Source of the DNA: Bacteroidales bacterium
GTDB taxonomy: Bacteria; Bacteroidota; Bacteroidia; Bacteroidales; VadinHA17
Direction of reading: 5' to 3'
DNA length: 64,000 nucleotides
NCBI GenBank assembly: GCA_017999895.1
Contig: JAGNKY010000001.1
Span: 218,715 to 282,714, forward strand
The translations under genes and the position numbers were made by a program. Every line of letters begins with the position of its first letter. The first letter of the stretch is position 1. This document shows positions 5,444 through 61,706 of the stretch, in pieces. Under the pieces are notes generated by a model. That model had not been told where the DNA came from, did not search any database, and saw nothing but the letters and a program-made list of their open reading frames with translations.

Positions 5444-5448
5444 TTTTA

Positions 5449-43886: not shown

Positions 43887-44314
43887 ATGGCAGATTTAAA
43901 GAATGTATATGGGGCTATCAACAGGGATATGGCTTATGATGCCCTTGAAGACTTTGCGAAGAAATGGGGTGCTAAATATGCCTATGCAATAAAATCCTGG
44001 AAAGATAACTGGGATGAGCTTACGGCTTATTTTGATTACCCACAGGAGATCCGAAAAATCATTTATACCACTAATGCCATTGAAAGCCTGAACGGTTATA
44101 TCCGGAAATACACTAAAACCAAAACTCTCTTCCCTGATGACCAGGCAGCCTTGAAAGCTGTATATCTGGCTATTGCAAATAAAGAGAAAAAATAGACCAT
44201 ACCCATTAAAGACTGGGGAAATGTTATAAATTAATTTATTATTATATTTGGAGATAGATGTGGCGTTATTTAAACCTGGCAACTACCAGTTTACACACAA
44301 ATATTTACAGGCTC
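43887..44314 (+). pseudogene. IS256-family transposase remnant (C-terminal ~115 codons only, internal TAG)
   Basis: YPQEIRKIIYTTNAIESLN...KTKTLFPDDQAALKAVYLAI matches the IS256/mutator C-terminus. TAG at 44193-44195 occupies the position expected for Trp (KK*TIPIKDWG continues in frame). The ~300 N-terminal codons are missing. A possible right end lies near 44314. Confidence 0.75.
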
Positions 44315-44341
44315 TAAATTTTTGTATAAAACTAAATTGCT

Positions 44342-45514
44342 ATGTATCAAAAATACCTTTTTTTTCTAGTTTTGTTTACATTCTCATGTAATTCCGGGAA
44401 TAATGTTCTTTACGAATTTAATCCCGAAGTCATTAATAAAAATGAAATCAAGCTTTCCGATATAGCTGATGAGATCACTTACATCCCGCTGAATTATCAA
44501 TACCCTTTAGGACTTTGCCATAAGATTGAAATTACAGACAATTCAATTTATGTATCAGTAAGTGATATTGGTATAATAGCTTTTAGCAGGAATGGGCAAT
44601 TATACAGAAAAATTGGGAATATAGGAAGAGGGCCGGGAGAATACCGTAACGGCTTGAAATTCGCTGTCGATGATAAAAATGAAAGAATATATGTTTTAGA
44701 CCAGGGTATAAAAATTAAAGTCTATTCAAAGTCCGGCAATTTTATAAGAGATATTCCCCTGCAGGATTATGAAGTTTATTTTGATGATATTGACTTTTAT
44801 AATTCCAGTTTATTTTTATCTGAATATATTGGTATTGGTAAGGCAGTATATAACTGGATAATTATAGACACACTTGGCAATTTAATCAGCCACAAAAAAA
44901 ATTCTGTTCCTTCATTTAAAAGTATCTTGATCCCTGGGGGAGGGACCTATAAATTTGAAAACAGAATATTTTACTGGAATTGTTATAACGATACTATATT
45001 TTCAATTTCTCCAGATTTAACATGTAAACCATCATTTTTATTTAGCCCAGGAGAACATAGATTACCAAGATCACAGTATTATTCAGAAGGAAAGAAGTTA
45101 TCTGATTATATGTTACTTAATAACATATTTGAAACAAGACGCTTCTGGGTGATTGTATATTACTTAAAAGCGAAAGGGGCAATCGTCCTTATTGAAAAAA
45201 TAAGTAATAAATCATTTTATGTAGATCTTGAAACTGAATCAATACCTTGGATTAGTTTTACTAATCATGGTGGTATTTTGGATGATCTTGACGGTGGGCC
45301 CAAGTTTCAGCCGTTTGGCTATTTCGAGGAAAATGGTCAGGAATATATTATGGGATTACTGGAACCTTATATACTCAAAACTCACGTTGCCGGCATCGAA
45401 TTTAAAAATTCTAGTACCAAATACCCAAGGGGAAAAGAAGAGTTAAAAAAACTTGCTGACCGACTTAATGAAACTGACAACAAGATACTTGTAATAGTGA
45501 AACTTAAAAAATAA
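44342..45514 (+). CDS. exported six-bladed (NHL-like) beta-propeller lipoprotein, paralogue 1 (no adjacent peptide gene)
   Basis: 390 aa. Lipobox-like FTFSC, GRGPGEY motif, DDLDGGPKFQP motif, and a conserved C-terminal tail KELKKLADRLNETDNKILVIVKLKK. Confidence 0.8.
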   Translation: MYQKYLFFLVLFTFSCNSGNNVLYEFNPEVINKNEIKLSDIADEITYIPLNYQYPLGLCHKIEITDNSIYVSVSDIGIIAFSRNGQLYRKIGNIGRGPGEYRNGLKFAVDDKNERIYVLDQGIKIKVYSKSGNFIRDIPLQDYEVYFDDIDFYNSSLFLSEYIGIGKAVYNWIIIDTLGNLISHKKNSVPSFKSILIPGGGTYKFENRIFYWNCYNDTIFSISPDLTCKPSFLFSPGEHRLPRSQYYSEGKKLSDYMLLNNIFETRRFWVIVYYLKAKGAIVLIEKISNKSFYVDLETESIPWISFTNHGGILDDLDGGPKFQPFGYFEENGQEYIMGLLEPYILKTHVAGIEFKNSSTKYPRGKEELKKLADRLNETDNKILVIVKLKK

Positions 45515-45586
45515 ATTATGCTTAGCTGAAGAAATGAATAAGTTGTATATGAACACAATAAAAAGCCATAATATAGTTTCGAAAGA

Positions 45587-47224: not shown

Positions 47225-47292
47225 CCTATTGAGAAAATGATGATTAAAAAATGGAAATATATTATTGCAGGGAATAGACGAGCAGAAATATT

Positions 47293-47383
47293 GGCAGAGG
47301 GCATAGGGCTGAGAGCAAAGGGTAAAATTATACTGCAATCCACGCTATTCTCCTCGTTCTTAGCTCTTTGCTCTCAGCCCTTT
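47293..47383. repeat. heptanucleotide-array hairpin element, copy A
   Basis: GGCAGAG GGCATAG GGCTGAG AGCAAAG, a 28-nt spacer, then TCTCCTC GTTCTTA GCTCTTT GCTCTCA GCCCTTT. It contains a perfect 15-bp inverted repeat (47306-47320 / 47366-47380). Confidence 0.8.
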
Positions 47384-47435
47384 ATAAAGAGAGGAGGTAA
47401 GCCTATGTGCAGATAATACTATTCCGTGACTTCGG

Positions 47436-47455
47436 TTGCGGCCTGTGAAAGGATA
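47436..47455 (+). promoter_or_regulatory. conserved cassette box 1 (TTGCGGCCTGTGAAAGGATA)
   Basis: The 20-mer occurs 4 times in the window, always 47-48 nt upstream of a precursor-peptide ATG. Confidence 0.6.
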
Positions 47456-47503
47456 CAGCAGGAAAAAGTAAAAAATAAATTGTTTAACTAAAAACATAAA
47501 ATT

Positions 47504-47761
47504 ATGAAAAAATTAAGTAAATTGCAGATTAATCCGGAAAGAATTATGAAGAATGAAGAACTGAAAATTCTGAGAGGTGGAGATTATGACTCTGGTTGTG
47601 GGAATTATACAGAGTGGTTTTGTGATGTGCATTACGATGGAGTTTATGCTTTTTCAGGCATAGCCTGTGGCACACAAGAATATATTTCTGGTGTCTGTCA
47701 ACAACTAAATTATGAATGTTCTTGTACACAAACATGGACTCCCATGCCTATCATTAATTAG
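47504..47761 (+). CDS. double-glycine-leader Cys-rich peptide precursor P1 (26-aa leader + 59-aa core, 6 Cys)
   Basis: The leader MKKLSKLQINPERIMKNEELKILRGG is conserved with three paralogues. The core has 6 Cys and ends in an NYECSC motif. The gene sits immediately upstream of the propeller/C39-ABC/HlyD genes. Confidence 0.85.
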   Translation: MKKLSKLQINPERIMKNEELKILRGGDYDSGCGNYTEWFCDVHYDGVYAFSGIACGTQEYISGVCQQLNYECSCTQTWTPMPIIN

Positions 47762-47874
47762 TATTAAAATTATAAATTGGAGAGTCAGAGGATAGTATTA
47801 ATTAAATTGAGTAAACAACCTCTGGTTCCTTTTCTTCATAATTTCATTTTGAAATTTATATTTTTTGTTCTGCT

Positions 47875-49179
47875 ATGATAAAAAAAATATACATGTTTTT
47901 TCTTCCAGTTGTATTAATGATTTTTCTTGCCCTAAAATGCACTGAATTTTGTATAGACAAAAATATAATAGACAAAAATATAATTGAAGAAATTGACATT
48001 CAGAGTAAAATTGGAAAATATGAAATCGTTAAATTGAGTCAATTTAGTTCTTCAATAAAATATTTACCTCTGATATTAGATGGTGAACATAAAATTAACA
48101 GGATTGTACAAGTAGATTTTACTCCAGACAAGATTCTAATTAGCGATGGGAAAGAATGCCTGTTACTTACTGCAGATGGATCATTTATTAGAAAAATAGG
48201 AGATACAGGCAGGGGACCCGGTGAATATAATATTATTTCAAATATAAGCTTTGGATCAAATAGTACTATTTTTATTCAATCGGCTAATGGTATTTTTCTA
48301 GAGTTTTCTGATGAAGGAACTTTGATTAATATTTCCAAAGTTCCTTCAAATTATTCACATGACTACTATATAGGATCGTGGATACAAGTAAATGACTCAT
48401 TGTTTTTCGGGCAAACTCCAATAACAACAGGGAAGGAATCAACAAAAGCTATATTATTCAATAAAAATGGTAAGATTATTAAGGAATATAAAAACTATAT
48501 TCTGCTTGACAGGCAAATAAGAATGTTTACCACAGATGACAGCGAAGCATCTTATTACTCATATAATGGCAGGATATATTATAAAGAAAAACTGAGCGAT
48601 ACATTATTTTACCTCGACGACAATTTCGATTTATTGCCCAGAATGACTTTTAGGCTGGGTAAATATTTAATGCCTAAAAAATACCGCGAAAACATAAGCT
48701 TTGGTCAATCCTTAAGCCCAAAGTTTAACTACATTTTCATAGAAAATGTTTATGAAACTCAACACTATTTATTGCTGGATTGTGAGTTTAACAGATACTT
48801 TCCGGCAAAACGAATTACACCTAAAATAATACATGGAGTGGAAATCTGGCAAAATACTTTGAATGTTCTGGGATTTTATAATAAACAAAATAGGACTCTT
48901 GTTTTTATTGAGCCAACATCGACAGATAATCCTTTGTACACCTCAGGGCTTTATAATGACATTGATGCCGGTCCAAGATTTTTTCCTATGAAGCAGGTCG
49001 ATGACTCAACTATGGTAATGTGGGTTGATTCTAAACAGCTTAAGGATCATATTGCAAGTGAGGAATTTAAAAATGCCAAGCCTCTATATCCTGAAAAGAA
49101 GGAAGAGTTGAAACATCTGGCCAACAGTCTTAAAGAAACCGATAATCCGGTTTTGATGATTGTACGTTTGAAAGAATAA
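47875..49179 (+). CDS. exported six-bladed beta-propeller protein, paralogue 2
   Basis: 434 aa. Signal/anchor N-terminus, GRGPGEY, NDIDAGPRFFP, tail LKHLANSLKETDNPVLMIVRLKE. A 15-bp in-frame tandem duplication lies at 47956-47985 (DKNIIDKNII). Confidence 0.85.
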   Translation: MIKKIYMFFLPVVLMIFLALKCTEFCIDKNIIDKNIIEEIDIQSKIGKYEIVKLSQFSSSIKYLPLILDGEHKINRIVQVDFTPDKILISDGKECLLLTADGSFIRKIGDTGRGPGEYNIISNISFGSNSTIFIQSANGIFLEFSDEGTLINISKVPSNYSHDYYIGSWIQVNDSLFFGQTPITTGKESTKAILFNKNGKIIKEYKNYILLDRQIRMFTTDDSEASYYSYNGRIYYKEKLSDTLFYLDDNFDLLPRMTFRLGKYLMPKKYRENISFGQSLSPKFNYIFIENVYETQHYLLLDCEFNRYFPAKRITPKIIHGVEIWQNTLNVLGFYNKQNRTLVFIEPTSTDNPLYTSGLYNDIDAGPRFFPMKQVDDSTMVMWVDSKQLKDHIASEEFKNAKPLYPEKKEELKHLANSLKETDNPVLMIVRLKE

Positions 49180-49181
49180 AT

Positions 49182-51479
49182 ATGTCCGAATTTCCTTTCT
49201 TCAAGCAGCTCGATTCCATGGATTGCGGTCCGACGTGTCTGCGCATGATAGCCAGGTTTTACGGGAAATCATATTCATTACAATATCTGCGTTCAAGGTC
49301 ATTTCTTACAAAAGCGGGTGTTTCGATGCTTGGCATCAGTGAGGCAGCCGAGAGCATCGGTTTCCGCACCCGCGGCTACCGCCTCACCTGGGAACAACTA
49401 CGTGACGAGGTACCACTCCCATGTATTGTTCACTGGAGTCAAAGGCATTTTGTCGTAGTGTACAATATCGAGAAGAAGAAGAAAGCTTGGGGCTTGGGGC
49501 GGAGGGCGGAGGGCAGAGTGCGGAGAGCAAAGGATATGGAGCAGGGAGCAAGAGGCGAAGAGCGCAGAGCATACAATTCAGAAACCATAGTTTATGTTGC
49601 CGATCCTGCCTCCGGTCTTCTTAAATACACCAGAGATGAGTTCCTTAAATGCTGGTATAGTACGAAAACCGATGGTGTTCAGGAAGGCGCCGCACTGTTG
49701 CTGGAGCCGTCACCTGATTTCTACCGCCAGGAAGACGAAGAAAAGGGTAAACTTAAATTCACATATCTGCTTGGTTATATAAAGCCTTACAAAAAGTTCA
49801 TCCTGCAGCTTATGCTTGGAATGCTCACCGCAAGCATAATCAGCCTTATATTTCCTTTTCTTACACAATCTCTTGTTGATACCGGTATCGGAAACAGCAA
49901 CATTGCATTTGTCATTCTGGTTCTTGTCGCCCAGTTGATACTTAGTCTCAGCCAGACAGCCAACGGACTGCTGCGTAACTGGATAAGCCTACACGTCACA
50001 AGCAGGATAAGCATCTCCCTTATATCTGATTTTCTAATTAAACTGATGAGACTTCCTATTTCGTTCTTCGATACAAAAATGATCGGAGATATAATGCAAA
50101 GAATAGGCGACCATAACCGCATAAAAACATTCCTTACCGATTCTCTTATCAGTATAATATTTGCCGTTATTACTCTAGTTATGTACACCATTATTATGGC
50201 TACATATAACCTTGCGATACTCGGAGTCTTTCTTGTCGGCAGTGCCTTATACATAGGCTGGGTCGTTCTTTTTCTCAAACGCCGCCGCGAACTCGATTAC
50301 AAGCGTTTTCAGCAAAGCGCGGCTAACCAGAGCAACATAGTACAGCTTATTACAGGGATGCAGGAGATAAAGCTTAACAACTGTGAGAAACAAAAACGGT
50401 GGGAATGGGAAAGGATACAGATAAAGCTCTTTAAGGTAAGCTTAAAGAGTATGATGCTTAACCAGAATCAGCAGCTCGGAGCAGTTTTGATAAACCAGAC
50501 GAAAGATATCTTTATTTCCTTCCTCTCGGCTATGGCTGTCATTCGCGGCGAGATGACCCTTGGTATGATGATGGCCGTTCAGTATATAATAGGTCAGCTC
50601 AATGCACCGATACAACAATTCATCGGTTTTACTCAGGCGGCTCAGGATGCAAGGATAAGCCTCGAGCGGCTTGGCGAGATACACAACCGTGAGGATGAGG
50701 AGAAGCCGGAAGACTATAAGATAAGAGACATTCCTGTAGATAAAGATATAGAGATAAAAAACCTTGTTTTTCAGTACGAAGGTCCTCATTCTGAAAAAGT
50801 ACTGGATGACATTTCGTTGGTTATTCCGGCAAAAGGTGTAACAGCTATTGTTGGAACAAGTGGAAGCGGTAAAACAACACTTATAAAGTTGCTGCTTGGG
50901 TTTTATGCTCCCGTGAAAGGGGGAATCTATCTGAACGGGACTCCTCTCAACCGGTTCAGCCAGAGTGAGTGGCGCAAAAGGTGCGGTGTTGTAATGCAGG
51001 AAGGATTCATCTTTTCCGATACTATTGCCGGAAACATAGGACTGATAGATGAAATTCCCGACAGGGAAAAGATAGACAAGGCATCCGATACGGCTAACAT
51101 CAAAGATTTTATCGAGGGCCTGCCGCTTGGGTATAATACCAGAATCGGCAATGACGGACATGGTCTGAGTACAGGTCAGAAACAAAGGATACTGATTGCC
51201 CGGGCAGTTTATAAAGAGCCTGATTTTATCTTTTTTGATGAGGCAACCAACGCTCTTGATGCAAAAAACGAAAAGACAATTATGGACAATCTGGGCAGCT
51301 TTTTTGAGGGTAAAACGGTTGTGATTGTTGCACACCGTTTGAGCACTGTAAAGAATGCCGATCAGATAGTGGTTCTCGAAAAAGGCAAGATAGTGGAGAA
51401 AGGAACGCATAATGAACTTGTTAAGATGAAAGGGGCGTATTATAACCTTGTGAAAGATCAGCTGGAACTGGGGAATTGA
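49182..51479 (+). CDS. peptidase-C39 domain ABC transporter (bacteriocin-type exporter) carrying an in-frame repeat insertion
   Basis: 765 aa. C39 triad context (QLDSMDCGPTC, HWSQRHFVVV, VADPASG), 6 TM helices, Walker A GTSGSGKTT, signature LSTGQKQR, Walker B IFFDEAT. Confidence 0.92.
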   Translation: MSEFPFFKQLDSMDCGPTCLRMIARFYGKSYSLQYLRSRSFLTKAGVSMLGISEAAESIGFRTRGYRLTWEQLRDEVPLPCIVHWSQRHFVVVYNIEKKKKAWGLGRRAEGRVRRAKDMEQGARGEERRAYNSETIVYVADPASGLLKYTRDEFLKCWYSTKTDGVQEGAALLLEPSPDFYRQEDEEKGKLKFTYLLGYIKPYKKFILQLMLGMLTASIISLIFPFLTQSLVDTGIGNSNIAFVILVLVAQLILSLSQTANGLLRNWISLHVTSRISISLISDFLIKLMRLPISFFDTKMIGDIMQRIGDHNRIKTFLTDSLISIIFAVITLVMYTIIMATYNLAILGVFLVGSALYIGWVVLFLKRRRELDYKRFQQSAANQSNIVQLITGMQEIKLNNCEKQKRWEWERIQIKLFKVSLKSMMLNQNQQLGAVLINQTKDIFISFLSAMAVIRGEMTLGMMMAVQYIIGQLNAPIQQFIGFTQAAQDARISLERLGEIHNREDEEKPEDYKIRDIPVDKDIEIKNLVFQYEGPHSEKVLDDISLVIPAKGVTAIVGTSGSGKTTLIKLLLGFYAPVKGGIYLNGTPLNRFSQSEWRKRCGVVMQEGFIFSDTIAGNIGLIDEIPDREKIDKASDTANIKDFIEGLPLGYNTRIGNDGHGLSTGQKQRILIARAVYKEPDFIFFDEATNALDAKNEKTIMDNLGSFFEGKTVVIVAHRLSTVKNADQIVVLEKGKIVEKGTHNELVKMKGAYYNLVKDQLELGN
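49485..49575 (+). repeat. 13-unit heptanucleotide array embedded in frame in the C39 domain
   Basis: GCTTGGG GCTTGGG GCGGAGG GCGGAGG GCAGAGT GCGGAGA GCAAAGG ATATGGA GCAGGGA GCAAGAG GCGAAGA GCGCAGA GCATACA. It encodes AWGLGRRAEGRVRRAKDMEQGARGEERRAY between the catalytic His and Asp. Confidence 0.85.
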
Positions 51480-51573
51480 TGCTTTTGCCTCTCCCGGCAC
51501 TCCCAAAATGGGGAGGTGTAGCGTGGTATAAGAGAAATAAGCCCCCCATTTTTGGGGGTTGGGGGGCAAAATA

Positions 51574-52899
51574 ATGGGATGTCAAACAGATAAAACTTAC
51601 ATGCCGGAACTTAACAAACAAGAGATTCGCAGTCCTGAGATGCAGGAGGTGATGTCGGGGATACCCGGAAGTATTATTAGATGGGGGTTGTTCATCTTTT
51701 TTGGTATAGTAATAATCTTTATTGCAGGGAGTTACTTTATAAAAAATCCCGAGATTGTTACAGTTCCTGTTGTTATTACCACTCAGAATCCGCCGGTTTC
51801 CATTGTTGCAAAATCAGGGGGCGAGATAGATAAATTATATGTTTCGGAAGGCTCGACGGTCGGGGAAGACGATGTTATAGCATTAATAAGTAACACATGC
51901 AATTATGACGACGAGAAAAGGCTTAAACGGTTCATTTCAGTCTTCGATGATAAGACGGACTGGGCAGTTATTGTTCGTATGCAACAGTCTCCTCCCGACC
52001 TGTCGTTAGGTGAAATACAAAGCGAATATGTCAGTTTTCAGAAAGTATGGAAAGAGATGAAGGATTATCTCGATCAGGCATATATTCCTTCAAAGCTGAG
52101 TCTTCTTGAAGAGCAAATAACCAGAAAGAAAGAATATAACGATGAGCTTGTCCGTCAGAAGGAGCTTCTTACGGAAGATCTTCTTCTTACAAGAAACAGT
52201 TTTGAACGCGATTCCATTCTATTTCATAGGCAGAGTTATTCGATATCGGTAAATGAATTTGAGAAATCGAGGCAGGCTTATATTCAGAAGCAATATTCCT
52301 ACAGTGTTTTCAATGCATCGCTAAAAAATAATGAGGCGGAATTTTTGCGTCTTAATGAAACACGGCTTGACCTGGAGATACAATATGAAAAAGAGCTGAA
52401 GCAATACATTTTTGCTATTGAAGAGTCGCTTCAGTTACTGAGGAGTTCAATATCACAGTGGGAAGAAAAGTATTTGATTAGAAGTCCGGTAGAAGGGAAA
52501 GTTACATTTAACAGGACACGGTATGAGAATCAGTCAATAAAGGTAGGAGAAACTTTTGCTGTGGTTATACCCGGTAATGCTTCTGAGGTTATTGCACGTG
52601 CAGTTATACCTGTGTCCGGATTTGGGAAGGTCAACACAGGGCAGTCTGTTAACATAAAGCTTTCCGGCTTTCCATATATGCAATATGGAGTATTGAAGGG
52701 AAGGATTTATTCCGTATCACAGGTACCCGGTGAGGAAGGTTTTATTGCAGAGATAGAGCTTACCGGGGGAATGACGTCAACATACAGGGAAAAAATAAGG
52801 TTCATTCATGAAATGAGCGGAACAGCCGATATTATTACCGGTAACAGCAGGCTGTTATATAGGTTTATTAAACCGATAAGAAGCATAATAAGCGAATAA
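51574..52899 (+). CDS. HlyD-family membrane fusion/adaptor protein
   Basis: N-terminal TM segment, a long coiled coil, and a C-terminal beta-barrel (GMTSTYREKIRF...GTADIITG), typical of bacteriocin-exporter accessory proteins. The start is ATG 51574 or 51601; the ORF track used TTG 51559. Confidence 0.88.
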   Translation: MGCQTDKTYMPELNKQEIRSPEMQEVMSGIPGSIIRWGLFIFFGIVIIFIAGSYFIKNPEIVTVPVVITTQNPPVSIVAKSGGEIDKLYVSEGSTVGEDDVIALISNTCNYDDEKRLKRFISVFDDKTDWAVIVRMQQSPPDLSLGEIQSEYVSFQKVWKEMKDYLDQAYIPSKLSLLEEQITRKKEYNDELVRQKELLTEDLLLTRNSFERDSILFHRQSYSISVNEFEKSRQAYIQKQYSYSVFNASLKNNEAEFLRLNETRLDLEIQYEKELKQYIFAIEESLQLLRSSISQWEEKYLIRSPVEGKVTFNRTRYENQSIKVGETFAVVIPGNASEVIARAVIPVSGFGKVNTGQSVNIKLSGFPYMQYGVLKGRIYSVSQVPGEEGFIAEIELTGGMTSTYREKIRFIHEMSGTADIITGNSRLLYRFIKPIRSIISE

Positions 52900-53386: not shown

Positions 53387-53421
53387 GCCTATGTGCAGAT
53401 AATACTATCCCGTGCCTTCTG

Positions 53422-53441
53422 TTGCGGCCTGTGAAAAGATA
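53422..53441 (+). promoter_or_regulatory. conserved cassette box 2 (TTGCGGCCTGTGAAAAGATA)
   Basis: 19/20 match to box 1, 47 nt upstream of the P2 ATG. Confidence 0.6.
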
Positions 53442-53488
53442 AAACAGGGAAGAATAAAAATAAATTATTTAACTAAAAATATAAAACT

Positions 53489-53716
53489 ATGAAAAAAATT
53501 GGTAAATTGCACATAAATCAGGATAAGATTATGAAGAATGAAGAACTTTTAGTACTTCAGGGAGGTTATGGAAGTGAGTGTGGTTTCTTGTGTTGTGTTT
53601 ATCTTGGTTCATCATTACTTTACTGCGGTGTCGGTTGTGGTGATAGTGCATTCGGAGCAGAAGCTAATTGTAATATGGAGTTCGGCCAATATGGATATAA
53701 CTGTAAATGCTGGTGA
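53489..53716 (+). CDS. double-glycine-leader Cys-rich peptide precursor P2 (26-aa leader + 49-aa core, 8 Cys)
   Basis: Leader MKKIGKLHINQDKIMKNEELLVLQGG. The core has 8 Cys and ends YNCKCW. Confidence 0.85.
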   Translation: MKKIGKLHINQDKIMKNEELLVLQGGYGSECGFLCCVYLGSSLLYCGVGCGDSAFGAEANCNMEFGQYGYNCKCW

Positions 53717-53802: not shown

Positions 53803-55071
53803 ATGAAGGAAGCTATTCTTTTTATTGGCTTGTTAATATCAATTATTCGTTGTTCATGCTCTTTTCATGAAAAAACGGATAATAATTTATATCATATTGA
53901 CATAGAAGCTAATATGCATAAAATGCAGCAGATCAATCTTAGTAAGTTTACAAAAAGTATTGAATACCTTCCTATGGAGATAAAGGATAATTTGGCATTT
54001 ACCGGAATTTGGGAGTGTGTGTTTTCTGATAAATACTTTTTAGCTAAAGATATTTCTAAATGTCTGCTTTATGATTATAATGGTAAATTAATTTCTATAA
54101 TCGGGAATCGTGGGCGAGGGCCTGGAGAGTATCAATATGTCAATAATGTGGCATTTGGTTTGAATAAGATTTATTTGCAAAGTTTAAGGGATTTAATGGA
54201 ATACGGTTTTGATGGTTCTTTTCATGATATACACAGGAATTTATTTTTTTTCAAAAGCTATTATGTGGGAAAATGGTTACCTCTGAACGATTCATTGTTT
54301 TTTGGAAAAATAGAGACTATAGTTGGGAATGAACCGTGCAAGGCATTAATATTTGATTTAAACGGGAACACTGTAAAGGAGTTTAAAAACTATATCATTT
54401 TTCAACGGGAGAAACCTTTATCCAGTGAAACGGAACGTCATGCAAATATCTATCGTTTTCAGAATGAGATCTTTTTTAAAGAATTACATAATGATACATT
54501 ATTCTATTTATCAGAACAGTTGGAACTTATACCAAAATATGTAATCGATCTGGGACAATACACTGTTCCAGTTTCGATAAGAAAACTTTTGATTATTCCG
54601 GAGAATAATTATATGACTGTAAATAATGTCTTTCAAACTTCAGATTATTTGTTCCTTGATACAAACTTCGGTTCACATTTTCCTGCTAGAAGATTGACAC
54701 CTATAAAATTACCAATATTTAATATTGAATCATATTATAACACTCAAGATGTATTGGGCATATTCGATAGAAGGAATAAAGAATTAATTTTTTGCAGTCC
54801 AACCAGCACAGATAATCCGTTATTTACTACAGGTTTTTATAATGATGTTGATGCCGGCCCGAGGTTCTTTCCAAAGGTGCAGGTCGATGACTCAACTATG
54901 GTAATGTGGGTTGATTCTAAACAGCTTAAGGATCATATTGCAAGTGAGGAATTTAAAAATGCTAAGCCTCTATATCCTGAAAAGAAGGAAGCGTTGAAAC
55001 ATCTGGCCGACAGTCTGAGTGAGTACGATAATCCTGTACTGATGTTTGTAACTTTCAAGAGTGAAAAATGA
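53803..55071 (+). CDS. exported six-bladed beta-propeller protein, paralogue 3
   Basis: 422 aa. Signal peptide with Cys (IIRCSC), GRGPGEY, NDVDAGPRFFP. The 3' 137 nt are near-identical to paralogue 2. Confidence 0.85.
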   Translation: MKEAILFIGLLISIIRCSCSFHEKTDNNLYHIDIEANMHKMQQINLSKFTKSIEYLPMEIKDNLAFTGIWECVFSDKYFLAKDISKCLLYDYNGKLISIIGNRGRGPGEYQYVNNVAFGLNKIYLQSLRDLMEYGFDGSFHDIHRNLFFFKSYYVGKWLPLNDSLFFGKIETIVGNEPCKALIFDLNGNTVKEFKNYIIFQREKPLSSETERHANIYRFQNEIFFKELHNDTLFYLSEQLELIPKYVIDLGQYTVPVSIRKLLIIPENNYMTVNNVFQTSDYLFLDTNFGSHFPARRLTPIKLPIFNIESYYNTQDVLGIFDRRNKELIFCSPTSTDNPLFTTGFYNDVDAGPRFFPKVQVDDSTMVMWVDSKQLKDHIASEEFKNAKPLYPEKKEALKHLADSLSEYDNPVLMFVTFKSEK

Positions 55072-55110
55072 TAACCAATAGGTAATAGGAAAACAAGGTC
55101 AGGGATATTA

Positions 55111-55208: not shown

Positions 55209-56560
55209 GAGGGTGTTCAAAAAAGTGTGTCAAAGAGTAAGTAATAAAAAATAGATTTGACACATGGAAAATAAGGAACGAAAACGGACGCCTCGAATAG
55301 AGGAACTGATTCCTGACTCTGAGAGGCGGGAGCAGGTATTAAACAGGTTATACAAAGGGGAACCCATACTTGGGGATGGAGGCATATTTACAGAAATGCT
55401 TCAAGCCTTTGTCAATGCAGCCCTTGAAGGGGAGATGGATCATCATCTGAAAGGGGGAAAAGGTGGATGCCAGGGCAACAGGCGCAACGGTCATACGCAC
55501 AAGGTAGTAAGAAGCACAGCAGGTCCATTTGAAGTTCATACTCCCCGGGACCGGGATGGGGAACACGAACCCATTCTGATTAAGAAATGGGAAAGGGAAC
55601 TTGGGACCGGTCTGGATGATATCATACTGAGTTTATATGCACGAGGACAATCGGTTGAAGATGTTCGGTATCAGTTGCGCAGGTTGTATGGATTAGAAGT
55701 GAGCGCAGGAGCGATAAGTGCGGTTACCGACCGTGTCTGGAGCGAGATTACCCAATGGCAGGAAAGGCCTCTGTCACCATTACAGGTAATAGTTTACCTG
55801 GATGCAATTCATTACAAGGTAAGGGAATCAGGTCAGATTATCTCCAAGGCGATATATACGGTTTATGGGGTAGATGTAAATGGAGAGCGAGATGTACTTG
55901 GGCTTTATCTGAGCGACAATGAAGGCTCGCGACAATGGGGTCTCATCCTTGAAGATATCAAGCGCAGAGGAGTGGATGATGTCTTATTCTTTTGTGTAGA
56001 TGGGCTTAAGGGGTTCAAAGAGGTGATTGAACAGGTATATCCTGAATCGATCCTGCAGCGCTGTATTGTTCATATGGTGCGAACATCGACACGGTTTGTA
56101 AGTGACAAAGATATTAAGGCAGTGTGTTCAGATCTGCGCAAAATTTACTCTTCAGCAGACAGGCAGCATGCGGAAATTGCCATGGAAGCCTTTGGTGAAA
56201 AATGGGGCAAATACCCTGAGATAAAGCCAAAATGGGAAGAGAACTGGGAAGAGTTGATGGCATTTATGGATTATAGCTCCAATATCCGCAGGATGATTTA
56301 TACGACCAATCCAGTAGAAGCTCTTCACCGAATTATGCGCAAGGTCACAAAAACAAAAGGAGCATGGATCAATGACAAGGGATTATTAAAACAGCTATAT
56401 TTAGCACTTAAGTACAACGAAAAAAGCTGGAAACGTAAAGCCTTCAACTGGCTTCCGATCCATAGAGAGCTCATTGAAAAGTTTGGAGACAGGTATGCAA
56501 AATTTGTTGTCCAATAAGTTTACCCGAAAAAGAAAATGACACACTTTTTTGAACATACCC
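55209..56560 (+). mobile_element. intact IS256-family insertion sequence (1352 bp)
   Basis: Terminal inverted repeats GAGGGTGTTCAAAAAAGTGTGTCA (left) and TGACACACTTTTTTGAACATACCC (right), with 19 bp perfect. Flanked by the 8-bp direct repeat TTGCCCGC (55201-55208 and 56561-56568). Confidence 0.9.
55264..56517 (+). CDS. IS256-family (mutator-type) transposase
   Basis: 417 aa and full length. DAIHYKV...CVDGLKGF...IVHMVR...IYTTNPVEALH are typical of Transposase_mut. Confidence 0.93.
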   Translation: MENKERKRTPRIEELIPDSERREQVLNRLYKGEPILGDGGIFTEMLQAFVNAALEGEMDHHLKGGKGGCQGNRRNGHTHKVVRSTAGPFEVHTPRDRDGEHEPILIKKWERELGTGLDDIILSLYARGQSVEDVRYQLRRLYGLEVSAGAISAVTDRVWSEITQWQERPLSPLQVIVYLDAIHYKVRESGQIISKAIYTVYGVDVNGERDVLGLYLSDNEGSRQWGLILEDIKRRGVDDVLFFCVDGLKGFKEVIEQVYPESILQRCIVHMVRTSTRFVSDKDIKAVCSDLRKIYSSADRQHAEIAMEAFGEKWGKYPEIKPKWEENWEELMAFMDYSSNIRRMIYTTNPVEALHRIMRKVTKTKGAWINDKGLLKQLYLALKYNEKSWKRKAFNWLPIHRELIEKFGDRYAKFVVQ

Positions 56561-56763
56561 TTGCCCGCCGTATCCGCCGGCTGGCAGAGAAGGCGGGTGC
56601 CCTCTGCCCTGCGCTCCTTGCTCTCCCGAATCTCGGGACTGCGTCGCTTCGCTCCTTGTGTGCTCTGTGCCAATCTTTCGCAGTCTTTCAATCAGCTACA
56701 GCTTGCAAAGCTTCCGCCTCTTTCCTTCTGCCTATCGCCTTTCGCCTTCTTCCCTGACTTCGG
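56561..56763. repeat. heptad element copy C, right part
   Basis: C/T-rich heptads (TCTGCCC TGCGCTC CTTGCTC ... TGCCTAT CGCCTTT CGCCTTC TTCCCTG). A ~48-nt core (56663-56710) is shared with copy D. Confidence 0.75.
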
Positions 56764-56783
56764 TTGCGGCCTGTGAAAGGATA
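56764..56783 (+). promoter_or_regulatory. conserved cassette box 3 (TTGCGGCCTGTGAAAGGATA)
   Basis: Identical to box 1, 47 nt upstream of the ATG at 56831. Confidence 0.6.
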
Positions 56784-56830
56784 AATCAGGAAAACTGAAT
56801 AAAATTTATTAATTTTAAAAAATAATGGTT

Positions 56831-57279: not shown

Positions 57280-58617
57280 ATGTTAAATTTATTTACTAAT
57301 CAATTAAATATAATTAATAAATTAATTTTCCCAATCTGTCTGATTGTCTTATTAATAGCGTCACGCTGCTTATCAAAAAGGCCGATAAATATATTACCGC
57401 TTATTGATATAGAAGCAAATATAAATAATATGCAGAAAGTTTATCTCAGTGAATTTACCGATAATATATGGTATGTTCCTCTTGAAAGTAATCCAGACTT
57501 TTTATTATACTGGACTTATAATAACTTATCGGATTTCTCCGAAAACTATATTTTGTATTCTGATGGAAAGATGTGCCTTCTATATGATAATGAGGGACGA
57601 TTTATCCGACCAATTGGCAAACAGGGCAGAGGTCCGGGAGAATATATAGGAATAGATTATATAGCATTGATAAATGAAAAAATATTTATACATGACTATT
57701 TTACCGATGATCTATTAGAATATAATATTGATGGAACTTTTATAAACCGTAACAAGAGTGGTTTTACTGGACATGACAAATACCGTCTGAGAGATGCAAT
57801 TATGATAAATGATTCAATGATTTTCGGAAATATTCAAAACTATACAGGTCATGAAGAATATAAGGCTTTGATTGTTGATAAAAAGGGGAACATTAAATAT
57901 CCTTATAAAAACTATATTTTCTTTGACTTAAAACCTGGTGTGCCACATGCTCAGGAAATGGGGGAGGGTGCAATATTCTCCAGATTTGGAGAAATAATTT
58001 ACTTTAAAGAACCATTTAATGATACCTTATTCCAGATTGATAATCAATTTCGACTTATACCTTTTTATATTTTTAACTTTGGTAAATACAAGTTTCCACT
58101 ATCAGAAAGGGGTAAAGCCTGGGCCGATATAGATCTTTCTTCATATATTTTTTTGAATGAAATTTTTCAGACAAAAAACTATTTATTTGTTTCATGTAGA
58201 TTAGGTAAGTATTTTCCAGCAAAAAGAATAACGCCTGAAATAATACGTACACCGAGTAATAAAGATTATATCCAATGGTATAACACACAATCGGTATTAG
58301 GTATTTTTGATGAGAGAAAAGGAGATATTGTTTTCTCTGAGCCTACCAGTACAAACAATCACTTATTTACATCAGGGATTTACAATGATATTGATGCAGG
58401 ACCAAGATTTTTCCCCGATAAGATGGTAAATGATTCAACTATGATGATGAAAATCAAATTTGACTATCTTGTAGAACATATTGAAAGCAATGATTTTAAA
58501 TATAATATTCCGAAATATCCTGAAAGAAAGAAAAAACTTGAAATGCTTGTAGATAGTCTGAAAAAGGTTGAATTTGATAATCCTGTATATATGTTTGTAA
58601 CCTTTAAGTCTAAATGA
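57280..58617 (+). CDS. exported six-bladed beta-propeller protein, paralogue 4
   Basis: 445 aa. TM/signal with Cys (IASRC), GRGPGEY, NDIDAGPRFFP, tail DNPVYMFVTFKSK. Confidence 0.85.
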   Translation: MLNLFTNQLNIINKLIFPICLIVLLIASRCLSKRPINILPLIDIEANINNMQKVYLSEFTDNIWYVPLESNPDFLLYWTYNNLSDFSENYILYSDGKMCLLYDNEGRFIRPIGKQGRGPGEYIGIDYIALINEKIFIHDYFTDDLLEYNIDGTFINRNKSGFTGHDKYRLRDAIMINDSMIFGNIQNYTGHEEYKALIVDKKGNIKYPYKNYIFFDLKPGVPHAQEMGEGAIFSRFGEIIYFKEPFNDTLFQIDNQFRLIPFYIFNFGKYKFPLSERGKAWADIDLSSYIFLNEIFQTKNYLFVSCRLGKYFPAKRITPEIIRTPSNKDYIQWYNTQSVLGIFDERKGDIVFSEPTSTNNHLFTSGIYNDIDAGPRFFPDKMVNDSTMMMKIKFDYLVEHIESNDFKYNIPKYPERKKKLEMLVDSLKKVEFDNPVYMFVTFKSK

Positions 58618-58660
58618 AATTCCCTTTCTTCAAGCAGCTCGATTCCATGGATTGCGGCAA
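58614..58660 (+). pseudogene. orphan 5' end (15 codons) of a C39-ABC transporter gene
   Basis: ATGAAATTCCCTTTCTTCAAGCAGCTCGATTCCATGGATTGCGG encodes MKFPFFKQLDSMDCG. Positions 58623-58657 are 35/35 identical to 49194-49228. It overlaps the propeller stop, as the intact gene does, then runs directly into heptad element D. Confidence 0.8.
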
Positions 58661-58828
58661 GACCTTTCTCTGCCAATCCTTCGCTGTCTTTCAGCCAGCT
58701 AAGGCTTACAAAGTCTGAGCTCTGTGCTCCTTGCCCTCAGCCCTTCGCCCTGTGCCCTGCGCTCTGTGCTTCGTGCCTCACGCCTCTCGCGTCACGCCTC
58801 ATGCCTCACACCTTTTCCGTGCCTCCGA
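58661..58828. repeat. heptad element copy D (13 consecutive NNGCYCT units at 58717-58807)
   Basis: GAGCTCT GTGCTCC TTGCCCT CAGCCCT TCGCCCT GTGCCCT GCGCTCT GTGCTTC GTGCCTC ACGCCTC TCGCGTC ACGCCTC ATGCCTC, preceded by the core shared with copy C (58668-58713). Confidence 0.85.
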
Positions 58829-58848
58829 TTGCGGCCTGTGAAAGGATA
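58829..58848 (+). promoter_or_regulatory. conserved cassette box 4 (TTGCGGCCTGTGAAAGGATA)
   Basis: Identical to boxes 1 and 3, 47 nt upstream of the ATG at 58896. Positions 58829-58926 match 56764-56861 at 97 of 98 nt. Confidence 0.6.
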
Positions 58849-58895
58849 AATCTGGAAAACTGAATAAAATTTATTAATTTTAAAAAATAATGGTT

Positions 58896-59126: not shown

Positions 59127-59147
59127 GAGTTGATTTAAGATTAATTT

Positions 59148-59176
59148 AAAGAAGGGGGACTTCAACTCCCTTCTTT
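59148..59176 (+). terminator. hairpin between P4 and propeller 5 (possible partial terminator/attenuator)
   Basis: AAAGAAGGG-N11-CCCTTCTTT followed by AATTTT, 22 nt after the P4 stop. Confidence 0.45.
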
Positions 59177-59188
59177 AATTTTGATAAG

Positions 59189-60424
59189 ATGATAATAAAA
59201 ATAAACATGAAGATAAATATGAAGATAAATATGGGGACATTTGATAAGTTATTATCAAATGTTTTAATTCTTTCATTATTGGCAATTAGCTGTAGAACCT
59301 CAAGTACTAAGGCCGACAGTCATATAATCACTTTTAACTTAAATAAGCTTCCCAAAATTTCAGAAGTAAAATTATCAGATCTTGGATTTACTGACATTGA
59401 ATATATCCTACTGGAAACAAATGATCAAAGCATGGTCCCAATGATTAACAATGTATTATTTGGGGATAACTACTTTTTAACACTTTTTTTTACGAATATA
59501 CTTATGTATAGATATGATGGAAAGTTTGTTACAAAAATAGGAACAGAAGGAAGAGGCCCGGAAGAGTTTACTGTTGTTCATGATGTAGATATCAATAGAA
59601 ATAATCAAAAAATTTATTTGGCTGATGGGTGGCAAAAGAAATTTTATGTTTATTCAGAAAGCGGGGGATTTGTTAATACATTTCGGACTTATATTCAAGG
59701 CAATATTTCCTTTAGATTCACTGAAGATGGAATTTTATGCTACAATAAGAATTCACTTGGGAATGTTGAAAACAGTTATACTTTGATTGATACTTCAGGT
59801 AAAATCATAAAAAATTTCCCTAATAAGTATCTTTGGAATTTAAGACAAAAAAATACAGTCATTTTTAATGAGAACCTTTTTTATCGTTTTAATAACAAGC
59901 TTTATAAGAAAGAGATTTATTCTGACACTATATTTATTTTCGAACATTCTTATTTTAAACCTCACTTAATTATTAAGCATGGGGATAAATTATTAACCAC
60001 GAAAGCACGCTCAGAATATGACCCAAGAATACTTTCAGAAAAGTTTATATCACAAAAGAATCTTTTTGAATTTGGTGATTATATTTATTATGAGTTTACT
60101 TATGATTCTAAAAGAAATGAGGGTATTACTTTTAAAGGTTTTATTGGTTCAAAAAAAGATAACACTCAGTTCTTAATTAATTCTGAAAATGGTATAGTTA
60201 ATGATCTGGACGGTGGGCCTGGTTTTTGGCCTAAAACTATAAAAGATGACCGCACGGTTGTTTCATGGGTTGAGGCTTTGAAATTAAAGAAATATATTGA
60301 TTCAGATTTGTTTAAAAATTCAACTCCCAAATACCCTGAAAAGAAGAAAGAGCTTGAAAAACTTGCAAACAGTCTTAAAGAGACCGATAATCCGGTTTTG
60401 ATGATTGTACGATTGAAAGAATAA
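59189..60424 (+). CDS. exported six-bladed beta-propeller lipoprotein, paralogue 5
   Basis: 411-aa ORF. The likely true start is ATG 59231 (MGTFDKLL...LLAISC lipobox). GRGPEEF, NDLDGGPGFWP, and a tail near-identical to paralogue 2. Confidence 0.85.
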   Translation: MIIKINMKINMKINMGTFDKLLSNVLILSLLAISCRTSSTKADSHIITFNLNKLPKISEVKLSDLGFTDIEYILLETNDQSMVPMINNVLFGDNYFLTLFFTNILMYRYDGKFVTKIGTEGRGPEEFTVVHDVDINRNNQKIYLADGWQKKFYVYSESGGFVNTFRTYIQGNISFRFTEDGILCYNKNSLGNVENSYTLIDTSGKIIKNFPNKYLWNLRQKNTVIFNENLFYRFNNKLYKKEIYSDTIFIFEHSYFKPHLIIKHGDKLLTTKARSEYDPRILSEKFISQKNLFEFGDYIYYEFTYDSKRNEGITFKGFIGSKKDNTQFLINSENGIVNDLDGGPGFWPKTIKDDRTVVSWVEALKLKKYIDSDLFKNSTPKYPEKKKELEKLANSLKETDNPVLMIVRLKE

Positions 60425-60554
60425 ATAAAACTGTAGTCCGGCCACTGACGGGCGATAGAAATGGATTTAAAGTTTATATAAAGTATAACCGATTGATCAA
60501 TAAACTGCTTTTATAATTTGTTGATATTTAATGTATAACTAAAACTATATTTCT

Positions 60555-61706
60555 ATGAAAAGGTTTTTAATCCAGCTTCTGTTTTTTGGCCTGTATAATA
60601 GTATTTTTTGCCAGCAGTTGCCTGTTTTAAATCTTTCTTCAGCAATTGGAAACCTTGAAAATATTACTTTAAGCGACTTTGTCGAATCCGTTACATATAT
60701 TCCTCTTGCCACCACTTATGACTGTCTCGTAGATAAGAATCCGAAAGTTTATGTTACCAAAGATTACATAGTAACAGTAACGTTTTTAAGGTGTCTTGTT
60801 TTCAACCGAAAGAATGGGGAATTTATACGTGAGATTGGGAGTTATGGCCGCGGACCCGGGGAATTTCAGAACGCCAGAGGGTTCTTAAACGAACATATTC
60901 CTGCATGTTACTTTAATGGATGGAATGGAAATCTGGTCAAGTATTCGATTGACGGCGCTTTCAGGGGAAATGTAAGGATACCTGGTTTTAAAGATAACTT
61001 CGATTCTCTTTCTCTCCCAATGAATTATTCTTATCTGAACGATTCAATTATAGTATGTGATCTTTTGATTGCTTCCGGAATCGAACCCAATTCACTAATG
61101 ATATTTAATGAGAAGGGCGAAGCCTTAAAGATTTTTCCTAACAGAAATATTTTAGAAACTAAACGAAATTTTGTGCTTCGAACCGGCGAAACGAGTTTTT
61201 ACCATTTTAACAACAATTTATTCTTTCAAAGTATGTACAATGATACTGTATTCCGGATATCCATCGACAAAATAACTCCATATTTTATTCTCAACCGTGG
61301 TAAACATAGTCCTCCGTTTGAATCAAAATGGTGGTCATTCGACAAGCAACTGCAATCAAATTTTATTTCTCAACCGGTATATCTTGAAAATGAGCGATAC
61401 ATCTCATTCAATTTCTATCTGAGCAAGAATAAATATTTTGCACTGTATGATAAATCATTGAAATTACTTAAAGTCACCGACAATAACTCCGGAATTAAGA
61501 ATGATATTGATGGATTCATGAATATAACATTCGATTCTATGAATTGGGAAGGAGAGTTGATTGGCATTCTTCAGGCAAATGAACTGGTAAGCTGGATAGA
61601 AAAGAATCCTGAAAAATTCAAAAAACTGAATCCTGCATTACAGAAATTAGGGAATATCGGGATGTGGGATAATCCGGTAGTTATTATCGGAAAATATAAG
61701 AGATAG
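60555..61706 (+). CDS. exported six-bladed beta-propeller protein, paralogue 6 (most divergent, no adjacent peptide gene)
   Basis: 383 aa. Signal peptide, GRGPGEF, a degenerate C-terminal motif (NDIDGFMNITF), tail DNPVVIIGKYKR. Confidence 0.8.
   Translation: MKRFLIQLLFFGLYNSIFCQQLPVLNLSSAIGNLENITLSDFVESVTYIPLATTYDCLVDKNPKVYVTKDYIVTVTFLRCLVFNRKNGEFIREIGSYGRGPGEFQNARGFLNEHIPACYFNGWNGNLVKYSIDGAFRGNVRIPGFKDNFDSLSLPMNYSYLNDSIIVCDLLIASGIEPNSLMIFNEKGEALKIFPNRNILETKRNFVLRTGETSFYHFNNNLFFQSMYNDTVFRISIDKITPYFILNRGKHSPPFESKWWSFDKQLQSNFISQPVYLENERYISFNFYLSKNKYFALYDKSLKLLKVTDNNSGIKNDIDGFMNITFDSMNWEGELIGILQANELVSWIEKNPEKFKKLNPALQKLGNIGMWDNPVVIIGKYKR

Follow-up and report, generated by a model that had tools for sequence, protein, structure and literature searches.

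A Bacteroidales island in which genes for double-glycine leader peptides are paired with genes for DUF5128 propeller lipoproteins

The bacteroidetocins are the nearest characterised relatives of the system described here. They are encoded in a four-gene unit that specifies a protein with five transmembrane segments (5-TM protein), the peptide, a thiol oxidoreductase and an ATP-binding cassette (ABC) transporter with a C39 peptidase domain (C39-ABC); the thiol oxidoreductase and the 5-TM protein are both required for toxin activity (PMC6671954, PMC8546649). We analysed a 64-kb stretch of DNA from a Bacteroidales bacterium (assembly GCA_017999895.1, contig JAGNKY010000001.1, positions 218,715 to 282,714), hereafter the window, and found that it contains an island (43887-61706) in which four genes for cysteine-rich peptides with a double-glycine (GG) leader are each followed by a gene for a propeller lipoprotein of the DUF5128 family. 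The island resembles the bacteroidetocin unit in having Cys-containing GG-leader peptides of Bacteroidota, export by a C39-ABC protein and a thiol oxidoreductase within the locus. However, whereas bacteroidetocins have a 15-aa leader and a 42-aa mature peptide with 2-4 Cys, the peptides of the island have a 26-aa leader and anionic cores of 49-59 aa with 6-8 Cys. Bacteroidetocin loci contain no propeller, and HlyD is not among the four genes, whereas the island has an HlyD gene, several cassettes and one propeller for each peptide. We found no gene for a 5-TM protein among the open reading frames (ORFs) and Pfam matches of the island or among the conserved neighbours in related loci. Set against the published description, the island thus departs from the bacteroidetocins in three defining traits: how long the leader is, the size of the peptide with its number of Cys, and the presence of a 5-TM gene. 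An initial annotation, made from the letters of the window, had held that a one-to-one pairing of peptide and propeller lies outside the bacteroidetocin model, and this agrees with the published four-gene unit, which includes neither a propeller nor an immunity protein.

The best explanation of the sequence is that the island would be a multi-cassette locus for exported, disulfide-rich, anionic GG peptides that resemble class II bacteriocins or microcins. We also put forward, with somewhat less than even confidence, the broader proposal that DUF5128 propellers are specific partners of secreted peptides and that, together with a peptidase-containing ABC transporter (PCAT) and HlyD adaptor, a VKOR-thioredoxin (VKOR-Trx) protein and an RNA leader, they make up an undescribed recombining antagonism system. 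Our literature search retrieved no description of a peptide-propeller pairing and no paper naming DUF5128, DUF4934 or DUF4933, and the pairing appears to be undescribed in the searchable literature.

Leader peptides and the propellers encoded downstream

The initial annotation had listed four short ORFs with a common 26-aa GG leader and cores containing 6, 8, 8 and 6 Cys, and all four were found as described. These peptides (A to D) share 17 invariant positions, nearly all of which lie within the leader, which ends in (R/Q)GG. A hidden Markov model (HMM) of the leader matched exactly these 4 ORFs in the window (E 1e-13 to 1e-16); such a four-peptide pattern is far beyond chance. Against 1.84 billion cluster representatives the same model matched 898 at E ≤ 1e-3, each representing a cluster at 50% identity, and 420 at E ≤ 1e-10. 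A search with a profile of the four peptides recovered at least 300 proteins with the near-invariant leader MKKLxKLQINPEKLMKNEELxxLRGG and very diverse cores. The nearest public relatives are Bacteroidales metagenome-assembled genomes (MAGs). Peptides A, C and D scored 24.9, 16.1 and 13.6 bits against TIGR04149 (cut-off 25) and B gave no match; 21 of 33 members of the peptide family matched at E ≤ 0.01, and most members of the family score below the curated cut-off. Judged by these profile scores, the leader is probably a divergent branch of TIGR04149.

The cores were compared across 231 distinct sequences. Their median length was 47 aa, their Cys count was even in 211 cases (91%), 63% having 6 and 18% having 8 Cys, and their median net charge was -4; 95% were anionic and 78% start with Tyr. 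Among homologues of the peptide C class, two cysteines are either present or absent together, which is what a disulfide pair would produce. AlphaFold2 (AF2) modelled the peptide C core as a beta-beta-alpha-beta arrangement with a predicted local distance difference test score (pLDDT) of ~87. The window cores had been called unrelated-looking, a description that has to be narrowed because each of them has a class in other genomes and none is unrelated to everything. Peptide A has a 96%-identical homologue (P0001), and four same-class homologues of peptide D were found (P0003, P0008, P0012 and P0017). The closest core to that of peptide B, at 60% identity, belongs to locus L007, and the L007 propeller ranks 1 of 103 in similarity to P3, the propeller that pairs with peptide B.

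We confirmed that a gene for an exported propeller follows each peptide gene and that two propeller paralogues, P1 and P6, are unpaired. The gap between the peptide stop and the propeller start is 113 nt for A, 86 nt for B, 206 nt for C and 62 nt for D. All six propellers passed the cut-off for PF17170 (DUF5128), scoring 47.7-91 bits against the required 22.9, with PF16288 (DUF4934) as a second match, and a propeller HMM found exactly six matches in the window. The motif GRGPGE(Y/F), reported earlier for the propellers, is present in five of them, whereas P5 has GRGPEEF. The AF2 model of P2 (pLDDT 90.4, predicted TM-score 0.86) contains 24-25 strands; its best fold match was PDB entry 4RAA (E 6e-17, TM-score 0.64-0.76), followed by NHL domains. 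A sequence search agreed with the fold match and aligned GRGPGE with the NHL repeats of TRIM2/3/71. The six-bladed beta-propeller fold is thus borne out by the P2 model and its match to 4RAA. A link to the six-bladed BamH propeller of the Bacteroidetes beta-barrel assembly machinery (the BAM complex) was also considered, as bacteroidetocins target BamA, and was rejected because no evidence was found that connects BamH with DUF5128.

A lipoprotein signal, defined in a heuristic scan as a hydrophobic N-terminus followed by Cys, was present in at least 90 of 119 propeller homologues; the signals of the window propellers end in ...FTFSC, ...LALKC, ...IIRCSC, ...IASRC, ...LAISC and ...SIFC. At least two acidic residues directly following the Cys, which constitute a surface-export signal, were found in only 5 of the 90 propellers with a lipoprotein signal. 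Given the published Bacteroidetes lipoprotein export signal, the rarity of this acidic signal suggests that the propellers are mostly periplasm-facing lipoproteins. The most conserved parts are the GRGPGEY loop and, at the C-terminus, the last quarter of the protein (residues 340-434), and variable long loops occupy residues 156-167, 207-224 and 261-287. The propellers also contain invariant D-T-L and D-S-T triplets, for example at P2 241-245 (NDTLF) and 376-379 (DDST). Such triplets conform to D(S/T)(A/I/L/V/M/T), the motif for general O-glycosylation in Bacteroidetes, and this would be consistent with export of the propellers. In gut Bacteroides, DUF5128 propellers are presumably paired with small 'NVEALA' proteins.

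Conservation of the pairing, recombination and an RNA-like element

The genomic contexts of three distant peptides were alike: each peptide gene was followed by a DUF5128 gene, and genes for the C39-like/VKOR/Trx protein, the C39-ABC protein and an HlyD/AprE-type adaptor were found in the loci. A scan of GTDB, sampled at one genome per species, yielded 74 loci, nearly all from Bacteroidales MAGs. Carriers belong to Rikenellaceae, Prolixibacteraceae, Marinilabiliaceae, Draconibacterium, Mariniphaga and Lentimicrobiaceae, and there is one cultured isolate among them, Draconibacterium mangrovi GM2-18 (L070). Altogether, 142 leader-peptide ORFs were collected from 81 sources. A propeller gene starts within 600 nt downstream and on the same strand for 118 of the 133 leader-peptide genes that could be evaluated, and the one-to-one pairing described in the initial annotation therefore holds well beyond the genome studied here. 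The remaining 15 peptides have no propeller; several of them are followed by a 354-aa ORF that is weakly related to the propellers (hhalign probability 51%, E 1.5e-4). Conversely, a leader peptide precedes 113 of the 152 propellers that could be evaluated in these loci and is lacking before the other 39. In a metagenome sample anchored on propellers, 40 of 86 evaluable propellers were preceded by a leader peptide and 46 were not, and many of the latter follow another propeller. Orphan propellers are thus common and orphan peptides rare, an asymmetry expected of toxin/immunity systems.

Some propellers occur well away from any peptide gene. Orthologues of P6, which are 70-80% identical across many metagenomes, occur without peptides among unrelated genes, as for one that stands alone at L082 10001-11167. 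In Maribellus maritimus (GCA_022267315.1, L083 3597-16383), ten tandem propeller genes without a leader peptide adjoin an AcrB-type pump gene, and a relative of P6 (38% identity) is a member of this array. Genes for resistance-nodulation-division pumps also recur near peptide loci (13-15 of the loci examined). At locus L160, ~100 nt upstream of the gene (4227-5618) for a distant propeller that is 28% identical to P2, lies a small ORF whose GG leader is of another kind (...LSTEEMKEIKGG) and whose core contains Cys; propeller pairing may extend to other leader families.

Core identity was correlated with propeller identity (Mantel r 0.44, 0/999 permutations). To control for ancestry, all candidates were taken from one other locus with at least two pairs, that is, from a single genome. 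At ≥50% core identity, core and propeller agreed on the best-matching pair in 62 of 69 comparisons, against 35% by chance, and at ≥40% core identity in 164 of 225, against 36% by chance; the comparisons are mutually not fully independent. This concordance shows that the cassettes persist as units rather than that the two products make contact, and physical linkage alone could give it. The putative effector gene is directly followed by its partner gene and the two are inherited together, as is characteristic of a cassette.

Alignment of the four units of the window revealed a mosaic. The upstream element and leader are 70-98% identical at the DNA level, whereas the core and propeller body are 30-55% identical. 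Identity rises again at the 3′ end of the propeller genes: the last 150-240 nt of P2 and P3 are 95-100% identical (repeats D1 and D2), and the last 60 nt of P2 and P5 are 96% identical. The ABC gene lies directly 3′ of the propeller gene in the case of P2 and in many other loci. The 52 nt that follow the P4 stop codon (58618-58669) are 88% identical to the first ABC codons and encode EFPFFKQLDSMDCG..., and sliding identity between units A and C downstream of the propeller stop is 82%. By this resemblance, the 52-nt segment is the scar of a duplicated or recombined peptide-propeller-ABC unit. Exchange of cassettes had been proposed in the initial annotation, and the mosaic identity, the ABC-start scar after P4 and the joint inheritance of core class and propeller clade all speak for it.

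The conserved upstream element is ~100 nt long, is predicted to form three hairpins and lies ~30-40 nt upstream of the peptide start codons; its last hairpin has the invariant loop UGAAAGGAUAAAU. When 48 copies were aligned with MAFFT, a structure drawn by hand paired 86.7% of cells, compared with 33-53% when the partners were slid by 1-3 columns, and 11 of the 17 pairs showed compensatory changes. A covariance model (R1) built for the element gave 92 matches when both strands of 1.0 Mb were searched. All matches were on the peptide strand, and 87 of them end 10-120 nt upstream of a leader-peptide ATG (sites in L001-L081). The window matches are at 47368-47466 (78.3 bits, E 2.4e-11) and 53348-53452 (71.6 bits), and partial copies that are 91% identical (repeat D3) lie upstream of peptides C and D. 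In the alignment derived from the model every pair of helices 2 and 3 has compensatory changes, and the covariation score was 0.276, against 0.109 for shuffled and 0.035-0.061 for slid versions, with the caveat that an alignment fitted to the model leans towards the structure. Rfam gave no match to the element at gathering or permissive thresholds. Folding of single sequences recovered the hairpins with z-scores that were not significant; the case for the motif is one of covariation only. We consider the motif a candidate new cis-regulatory RNA.

Other non-coding elements were noted around the peptide genes. Just 5′ of the RNA-like motif is a GC-rich palindromic or low-complexity repeat (D6), of which the A and B copies are 89% identical and have an exact 30-mer in common. 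Similar GC-rich tracts lie at 56560-56750 and 58670-58815, and in most other genomes, too, the motif has such a repeat in front of it. A hairpin at 59146-59178 (-18.7 kcal/mol, z-score -2.1) overlaps a sub-threshold Rfam match to the Bacteroidetes small RNA FopS (28.6 bits, gathering threshold 56); this hairpin may attenuate read-through into the P5 gene.

Organisation of the island and of related loci

Every gene of the island is on the + strand (Table 1). The island is flanked on one side by genes for lysyl-tRNA synthetase, a sugar kinase and a GntR protein and on the other by a gene for an E2 acyltransferase; the sole Rfam match at gathering level in the window is a tRNA gene (7603-7686, - strand). 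The genes for the peptides, the propellers and the VKOR protein have a GC content of 29-34%, compared with 41-44% for the flanks and 43-46% for the ABC and HlyD genes and the IS256 sequences. The view that most of the island is AT-rich is thus correct for the peptide, propeller and VKOR parts and incorrect for the ABC, HlyD and IS256 parts. An IS256 remnant adjoins the island as had been noted, and a full transposase of the same type is also present inside it. The two are ~40% identical by eye over their shared C-terminal part, and would represent distinct members of the IS256 family, not duplicates of a single element. That the island is an accessory one is inferred from its base composition and insertion sequence (IS) elements only.

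Table 1. Coordinates of the island features within the window
Feature	Position	Strand	Remarks
IS256-family transposase, C-terminal remnant	43887-44195	+	Left edge of island; NF033543 transpos_IS256 E 2.3e-31, profile 235-337 only
Propeller P1, 390 aa, unpaired	44342-45514	+	PF17170 87 bits and PF16288; no leader HMM match upstream
C39-like/VKOR/thioredoxin fusion, 545 aa	45587-47224	+	PF07884 and PF13462; predicted disulfide-forming oxidoreductase
Non-coding leader of peptide A	47283-47466	+	GC-rich palindromic repeat 47283-47382, then three-hairpin RNA-like motif 47368-47466
Peptide A, 85 aa, core 59 aa, 6 Cys	47504-47761	+	Leader HMM E 2e-15
Propeller P2, 434 aa, pairs with peptide A	47875-49179	+	PF17170
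C39-ABC exporter (PCAT)	49182-51479	+	PF03412, PF00664, PF00005
HlyD-family membrane-fusion (adaptor) protein	51559-52899	+	PF13437; TIGR01843 E 2.5e-29
Non-coding leader of peptide B	53256-53452	+	GC-rich repeat 53256-53355; RNA-like motif 53348-53452
Peptide B, 75 aa, core 49 aa, 8 Cys	53489-53716	+	Leader HMM
Propeller P3, 422 aa, pairs with peptide B	53803-55071	+	PF17170
Full-length IS256/Mutator-family transposase	55264-56517	+	Between cassettes B and C; PF00872 E 4.9e-90
Partial RNA-like motif upstream of peptide C	56749-56794	+	Helices 2 and 3 only; R1 32.7 bits, E 0.005
Peptide C, core 54 aa, 8 Cys	56825/56831-57073	+	Likely start ATG 56831; leader HMM
Propeller P4, 445 aa, pairs with peptide C	57280-58617	+	PF17170
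Scar of C39-ABC 5′ end, 52 nt	58618-58669	+	Repeat D7; directly 3′ of P4 stop
Partial RNA-like motif upstream of peptide D	58815-58862	+	Repeat D3; below R1 reporting threshold
Peptide D, core 50 aa, 6 Cys	58890/58896-59126	+	Likely start ATG 58896; leader HMM
Terminator-like hairpin, 13-bp stem and T run	59146-59178	+	Between peptide D and P5
Propeller P5, 411 aa, pairs with peptide D	59189-60424	+	PF17170 91 bits
Propeller P6, 383 aa, unpaired	60555-61706	+	PF17170 and PF16288

Scans of the ORFs with Pfam and NCBIfam profiles matched all of the C39, VKOR, thioredoxin, HlyD and propeller assignments made earlier, including the provision of a single C39-ABC gene and a single HlyD gene for the whole island. 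The three parts proposed for the 545-aa fusion, a C39-like N-terminus, a VKOR domain and a thioredoxin domain, likewise agreed with the profile matches. VKOR (PF07884) scored 54 bits and Thioredoxin_4 (PF13462) 47.5 bits, and the translation contains the redox motifs KLCHLNKATNC, WCPMC and HCSHC (CPMC, CSHC). The N-terminus matched positions 20-132 only of the Peptidase_C39 profile (the window protein at E 0.0084, an orthologue at 47.6 bits); as the match begins at profile position 20, the C39-like domain lacks the catalytic-Cys region. In the C39-ABC protein (PF03412, 105 bits), the triad Cys15 (DCGPTC), His89 (RHFVVV) and Asp141 (VADP) is present in the translation. The C39 loop that separates the catalytic His from the Asp is extended in this gene by 33 in-frame codons of GC-rich, low-complexity sequence (49485-49583). 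Orthologues have 0 to ~75 aa inserted at the same place, and the inserted DNA is similar to the (CTGAGC/CTGTGC/CTGCGC)n repeats that occur between genes, upstream of the peptides.

One gene order was found in all 18 complete loci: [LanC-like][GT4][VKOR-Trx][peptide-propeller]n[ABC][HlyD][peptide-propeller]n, where GT4 is a family 4 glycosyltransferase. The window keeps this order, with the IS256 remnant and P1 in the position usually occupied by the LanC-like and GT4 genes. Upstream of the VKOR gene, a LanC-like gene is found in 13 and a GT4 gene in 11 of the 17 remaining complete loci, and because both are absent here the window is a reduced variant. No LanB, LanM, LanC or glycosyltransferase gene was found in the 64-kb window, so that the absence of LanB/LanM genes reported for it is upheld, whereas it does not carry over to the related loci with their LanC-like genes. 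The loci with LanC-like and/or GT4 genes are L001, L004-L006, L008, L012, L017, L020, L039, L042, L050, L060, L063, L068 and L070; the LanC-like genes are distant, with one or more per locus, and L001 also has a family 2 glycosyltransferase (GT2) gene. A Pfam scan likewise bore out the reported lack of a radical S-adenosylmethionine (SAM) gene: there is no radical SAM maturase gene in the island or among the conserved neighbour clusters, and only L005 and L006 have one.

Role of the propellers and comparison with known systems

Family knowledge and the bacteroidetocin precedent suggest how the island might work. The PCAT would cleave each peptide after GG while exporting the core, and the VKOR-Trx fusion would form 3-4 disulfides on the periplasmic side, with its C39-like domain perhaps helping to recruit the leader. 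Each peptide would be a polymorphic antagonistic effector and would have as its cognate protective partner the DUF5128 lipoprotein of the next gene downstream, which would bind its peptide or render it harmless in the envelope of the producer, while propellers without a peptide would act as orphan protection genes. Recombination between conserved flanks, namely the upstream element and leader before the cassette and the propeller 3′ end and ABC start after it, would exchange cassettes composed of core and propeller body. The mosaic identity, the ABC scar and the IS elements within and beside the island argue for this recombination.

Reading each pair as a toxin and its cognate protective propeller lipoprotein, as the initial annotation had proposed, is the best interpretation of the sequences, and one to which we give just short of an even chance. 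It is favoured by the tight adjacency and joint inheritance of the two genes, by the abundance of orphan propellers, the scarcity of orphan peptides and the existence of peptide-less propeller arrays, and by the use in Bacteroidales of lipoprotein immunity proteins (BcpI, BcdI) and of orphan-immunity arrays of the acquired interbacterial defence (AID) type (PMC11901371). Several observations weigh against it. No immunity protein has been found for the bacteroidetocins, the nearest characterised system (PMC6671954, PMC8546649), and the immunity proteins of class II microcins are small inner-membrane proteins of ≤216 aa, not 400-aa propellers (PMC12219008). About half of the close propeller relatives have no peptide. 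A search of PDB with the peptide C core model matched no known toxin fold (best E 1.1). The Pfam scan of the island, in agreement with the initial annotation, and the survey of conserved neighbours found no OEP/TolC-type gene, which may lie elsewhere in the genome. The LanC-like and GT4 genes of related loci imply that peptides of the family may be further modified in most hosts. Finally, the propellers have conserved polar motifs (GRGPGE, NDT, YNDIDxGPRFFP and DNP), which may point to a catalytic or ligand site common to the propellers and not simply to a binding protein.

These motifs and the conserved C-terminal quarter would suit a common site or partner, such as the Trx domain or HlyD, if the propeller were instead a peptide-specific periplasmic escort, foldase or maturation factor for the exported core that served production and not protection. 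Such a factor would, as a lipoprotein, reside in the compartment where VKOR-Trx acts; NHL-type propeller folds include enzymes, bacteroidetocin activity needs an accessory that is not an immunity protein (the 5-TM protein, whose gene is missing here), and one-to-one adjacency and co-inheritance fit any specific binder. We nevertheless regard an escort as unlikely, since arrays of up to ten propellers without peptide or exporter and stand-alone P6-type propellers are hard to explain in this way, and one enzyme per substrate would be unusual when a single VKOR-Trx protein and exporter serve all cassettes. Adjacency without meaning, in which an expanded lipoprotein family happens to sit near peptide genes, is scarcely credible: DUF5128 is indeed large and paralogue-rich, with many members that lack peptides, but 118 of 133 peptide genes from Rikenellaceae to Prolixibacteraceae are directly followed by a propeller gene, the class of the core goes with the clade of the propeller (62/69 vs 35% by chance) and the gene order is kept in 18 complete loci.

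The DUF5128 lipoproteins might also be the targets of the peptides, the adjacent copy being a resistant allele acquired with the toxin. This is the arrangement of the Bacteroidales secreted antimicrobial proteins (BSAPs), whose producers carry an orthologous, non-targeted surface molecule beside the toxin gene (PMC11901371). The long hypervariable propeller loops (including 156-167, 207-224 and 261-287) and the abundant stand-alone arrays of paralogues, as for a family with its own cellular role, would fit such a swap. We think it improbable because one genome carries a set of 4-6 different propellers, not one allele that has been exchanged, and the acidic surface-export signal occurs in only 5 of 90 propellers. 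Still less probable, in our judgement, is signalling by a secreted peptide ligand and a cognate lipoprotein receptor that diversify as 'pherotypes' for kin recognition or quorum sensing. Export of GG-leader peptides by PCATs also serves signalling, peptide C has a weak ComC-family match, a conserved, putatively regulatory leader precedes every peptide gene, and in other bacteria Rap-Phr provides polymorphic ligand/receptor cassettes with orphan receptors. However, the conserved gene set encodes no kinase, regulator or transmembrane output domain, several different pairs are kept per genome, and 47-aa cores with 3-4 disulfides are atypical for pheromones.

If the protective-partner reading is true, it gives a first functional handle on DUF5128/DUF4934, which are paralogue-rich Bacteroidota lipoproteins, and extends the paradigm of GG-leader peptide toxins in Bacteroidota past the bacteroidetocins to ~900 clusters with cognate partners. 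Some ~900 peptide types would then be involved, and the stand-alone propeller arrays would be banks of orphan protection genes. The natural peptide/propeller pairs offer material for the study of how binding specificity evolves, the upstream motif points to a candidate new cis-regulatory RNA, and the cultured carrier D. mangrovi GM2-18 makes the hypotheses directly testable.

Among other described systems, class II microcins with CvaAB-type exporters, such as MccV, are also Gram-negative GG-leader peptides that are often Gly-rich and sometimes disulfide-bonded; they likewise use a PCAT with an HlyD-family adaptor, and the immunity gene adjoins the toxin gene (PMC12219008). Unlike the island, their loci have no dedicated VKOR-Trx protein, propeller or multi-cassette arrays. 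TIGR04149 ('GG-Bacteroidales') is a related leader type that by definition comprises precursors of ribosomally synthesised and post-translationally modified peptides whose modification is by radical SAM enzymes, whereas the window has no radical SAM gene. Glycocins such as sublancin are encoded in the order sunA-sunT-bdbA-sunS-bdbB. They have in common with the island a GG-leader Cys-rich peptide, a C39-ABC exporter and dedicated thiol-disulfide oxidoreductases, and glycosyltransferase genes occur in the related loci although not in the window. Glycocin loci differ in encoding an S-glycosyltransferase of the GT2 type and, for immunity, a small membrane protein, and they are not known to have a propeller, VKOR fusion or cassette arrays.

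The cassette organisation itself is closest to that of polymorphic toxins (Zhang et al. 2012, PMC3482391) and of the AID, BcpT/BcpI and CDCL/BcdI systems (PMC11901371), in which a conserved trafficking N-terminus precedes a variable effector and the cognate gene lies downstream. Orphan protection arrays, recombination at conserved flanks and lipoprotein immunity in Bacteroidales are further points of likeness. Polymorphic toxins are large multidomain proteins, whereas the peptides here have ~50 disulfide-rich residues and would leave by a PCAT, and a six-bladed propeller partner is not among the retrieved polymorphic toxin/immunity cases. The structural match to P2, 4RAA, is B. fragilis BF0058, a 'putative exported protein' deposited as a structural-genomics entry without assigned function. 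By analogy with the bacteroidetocins, the island would work like a PCAT-exported class II bacteriocin or microcin system with a dedicated oxidase, to which the propeller adds a new and consistently coupled component.

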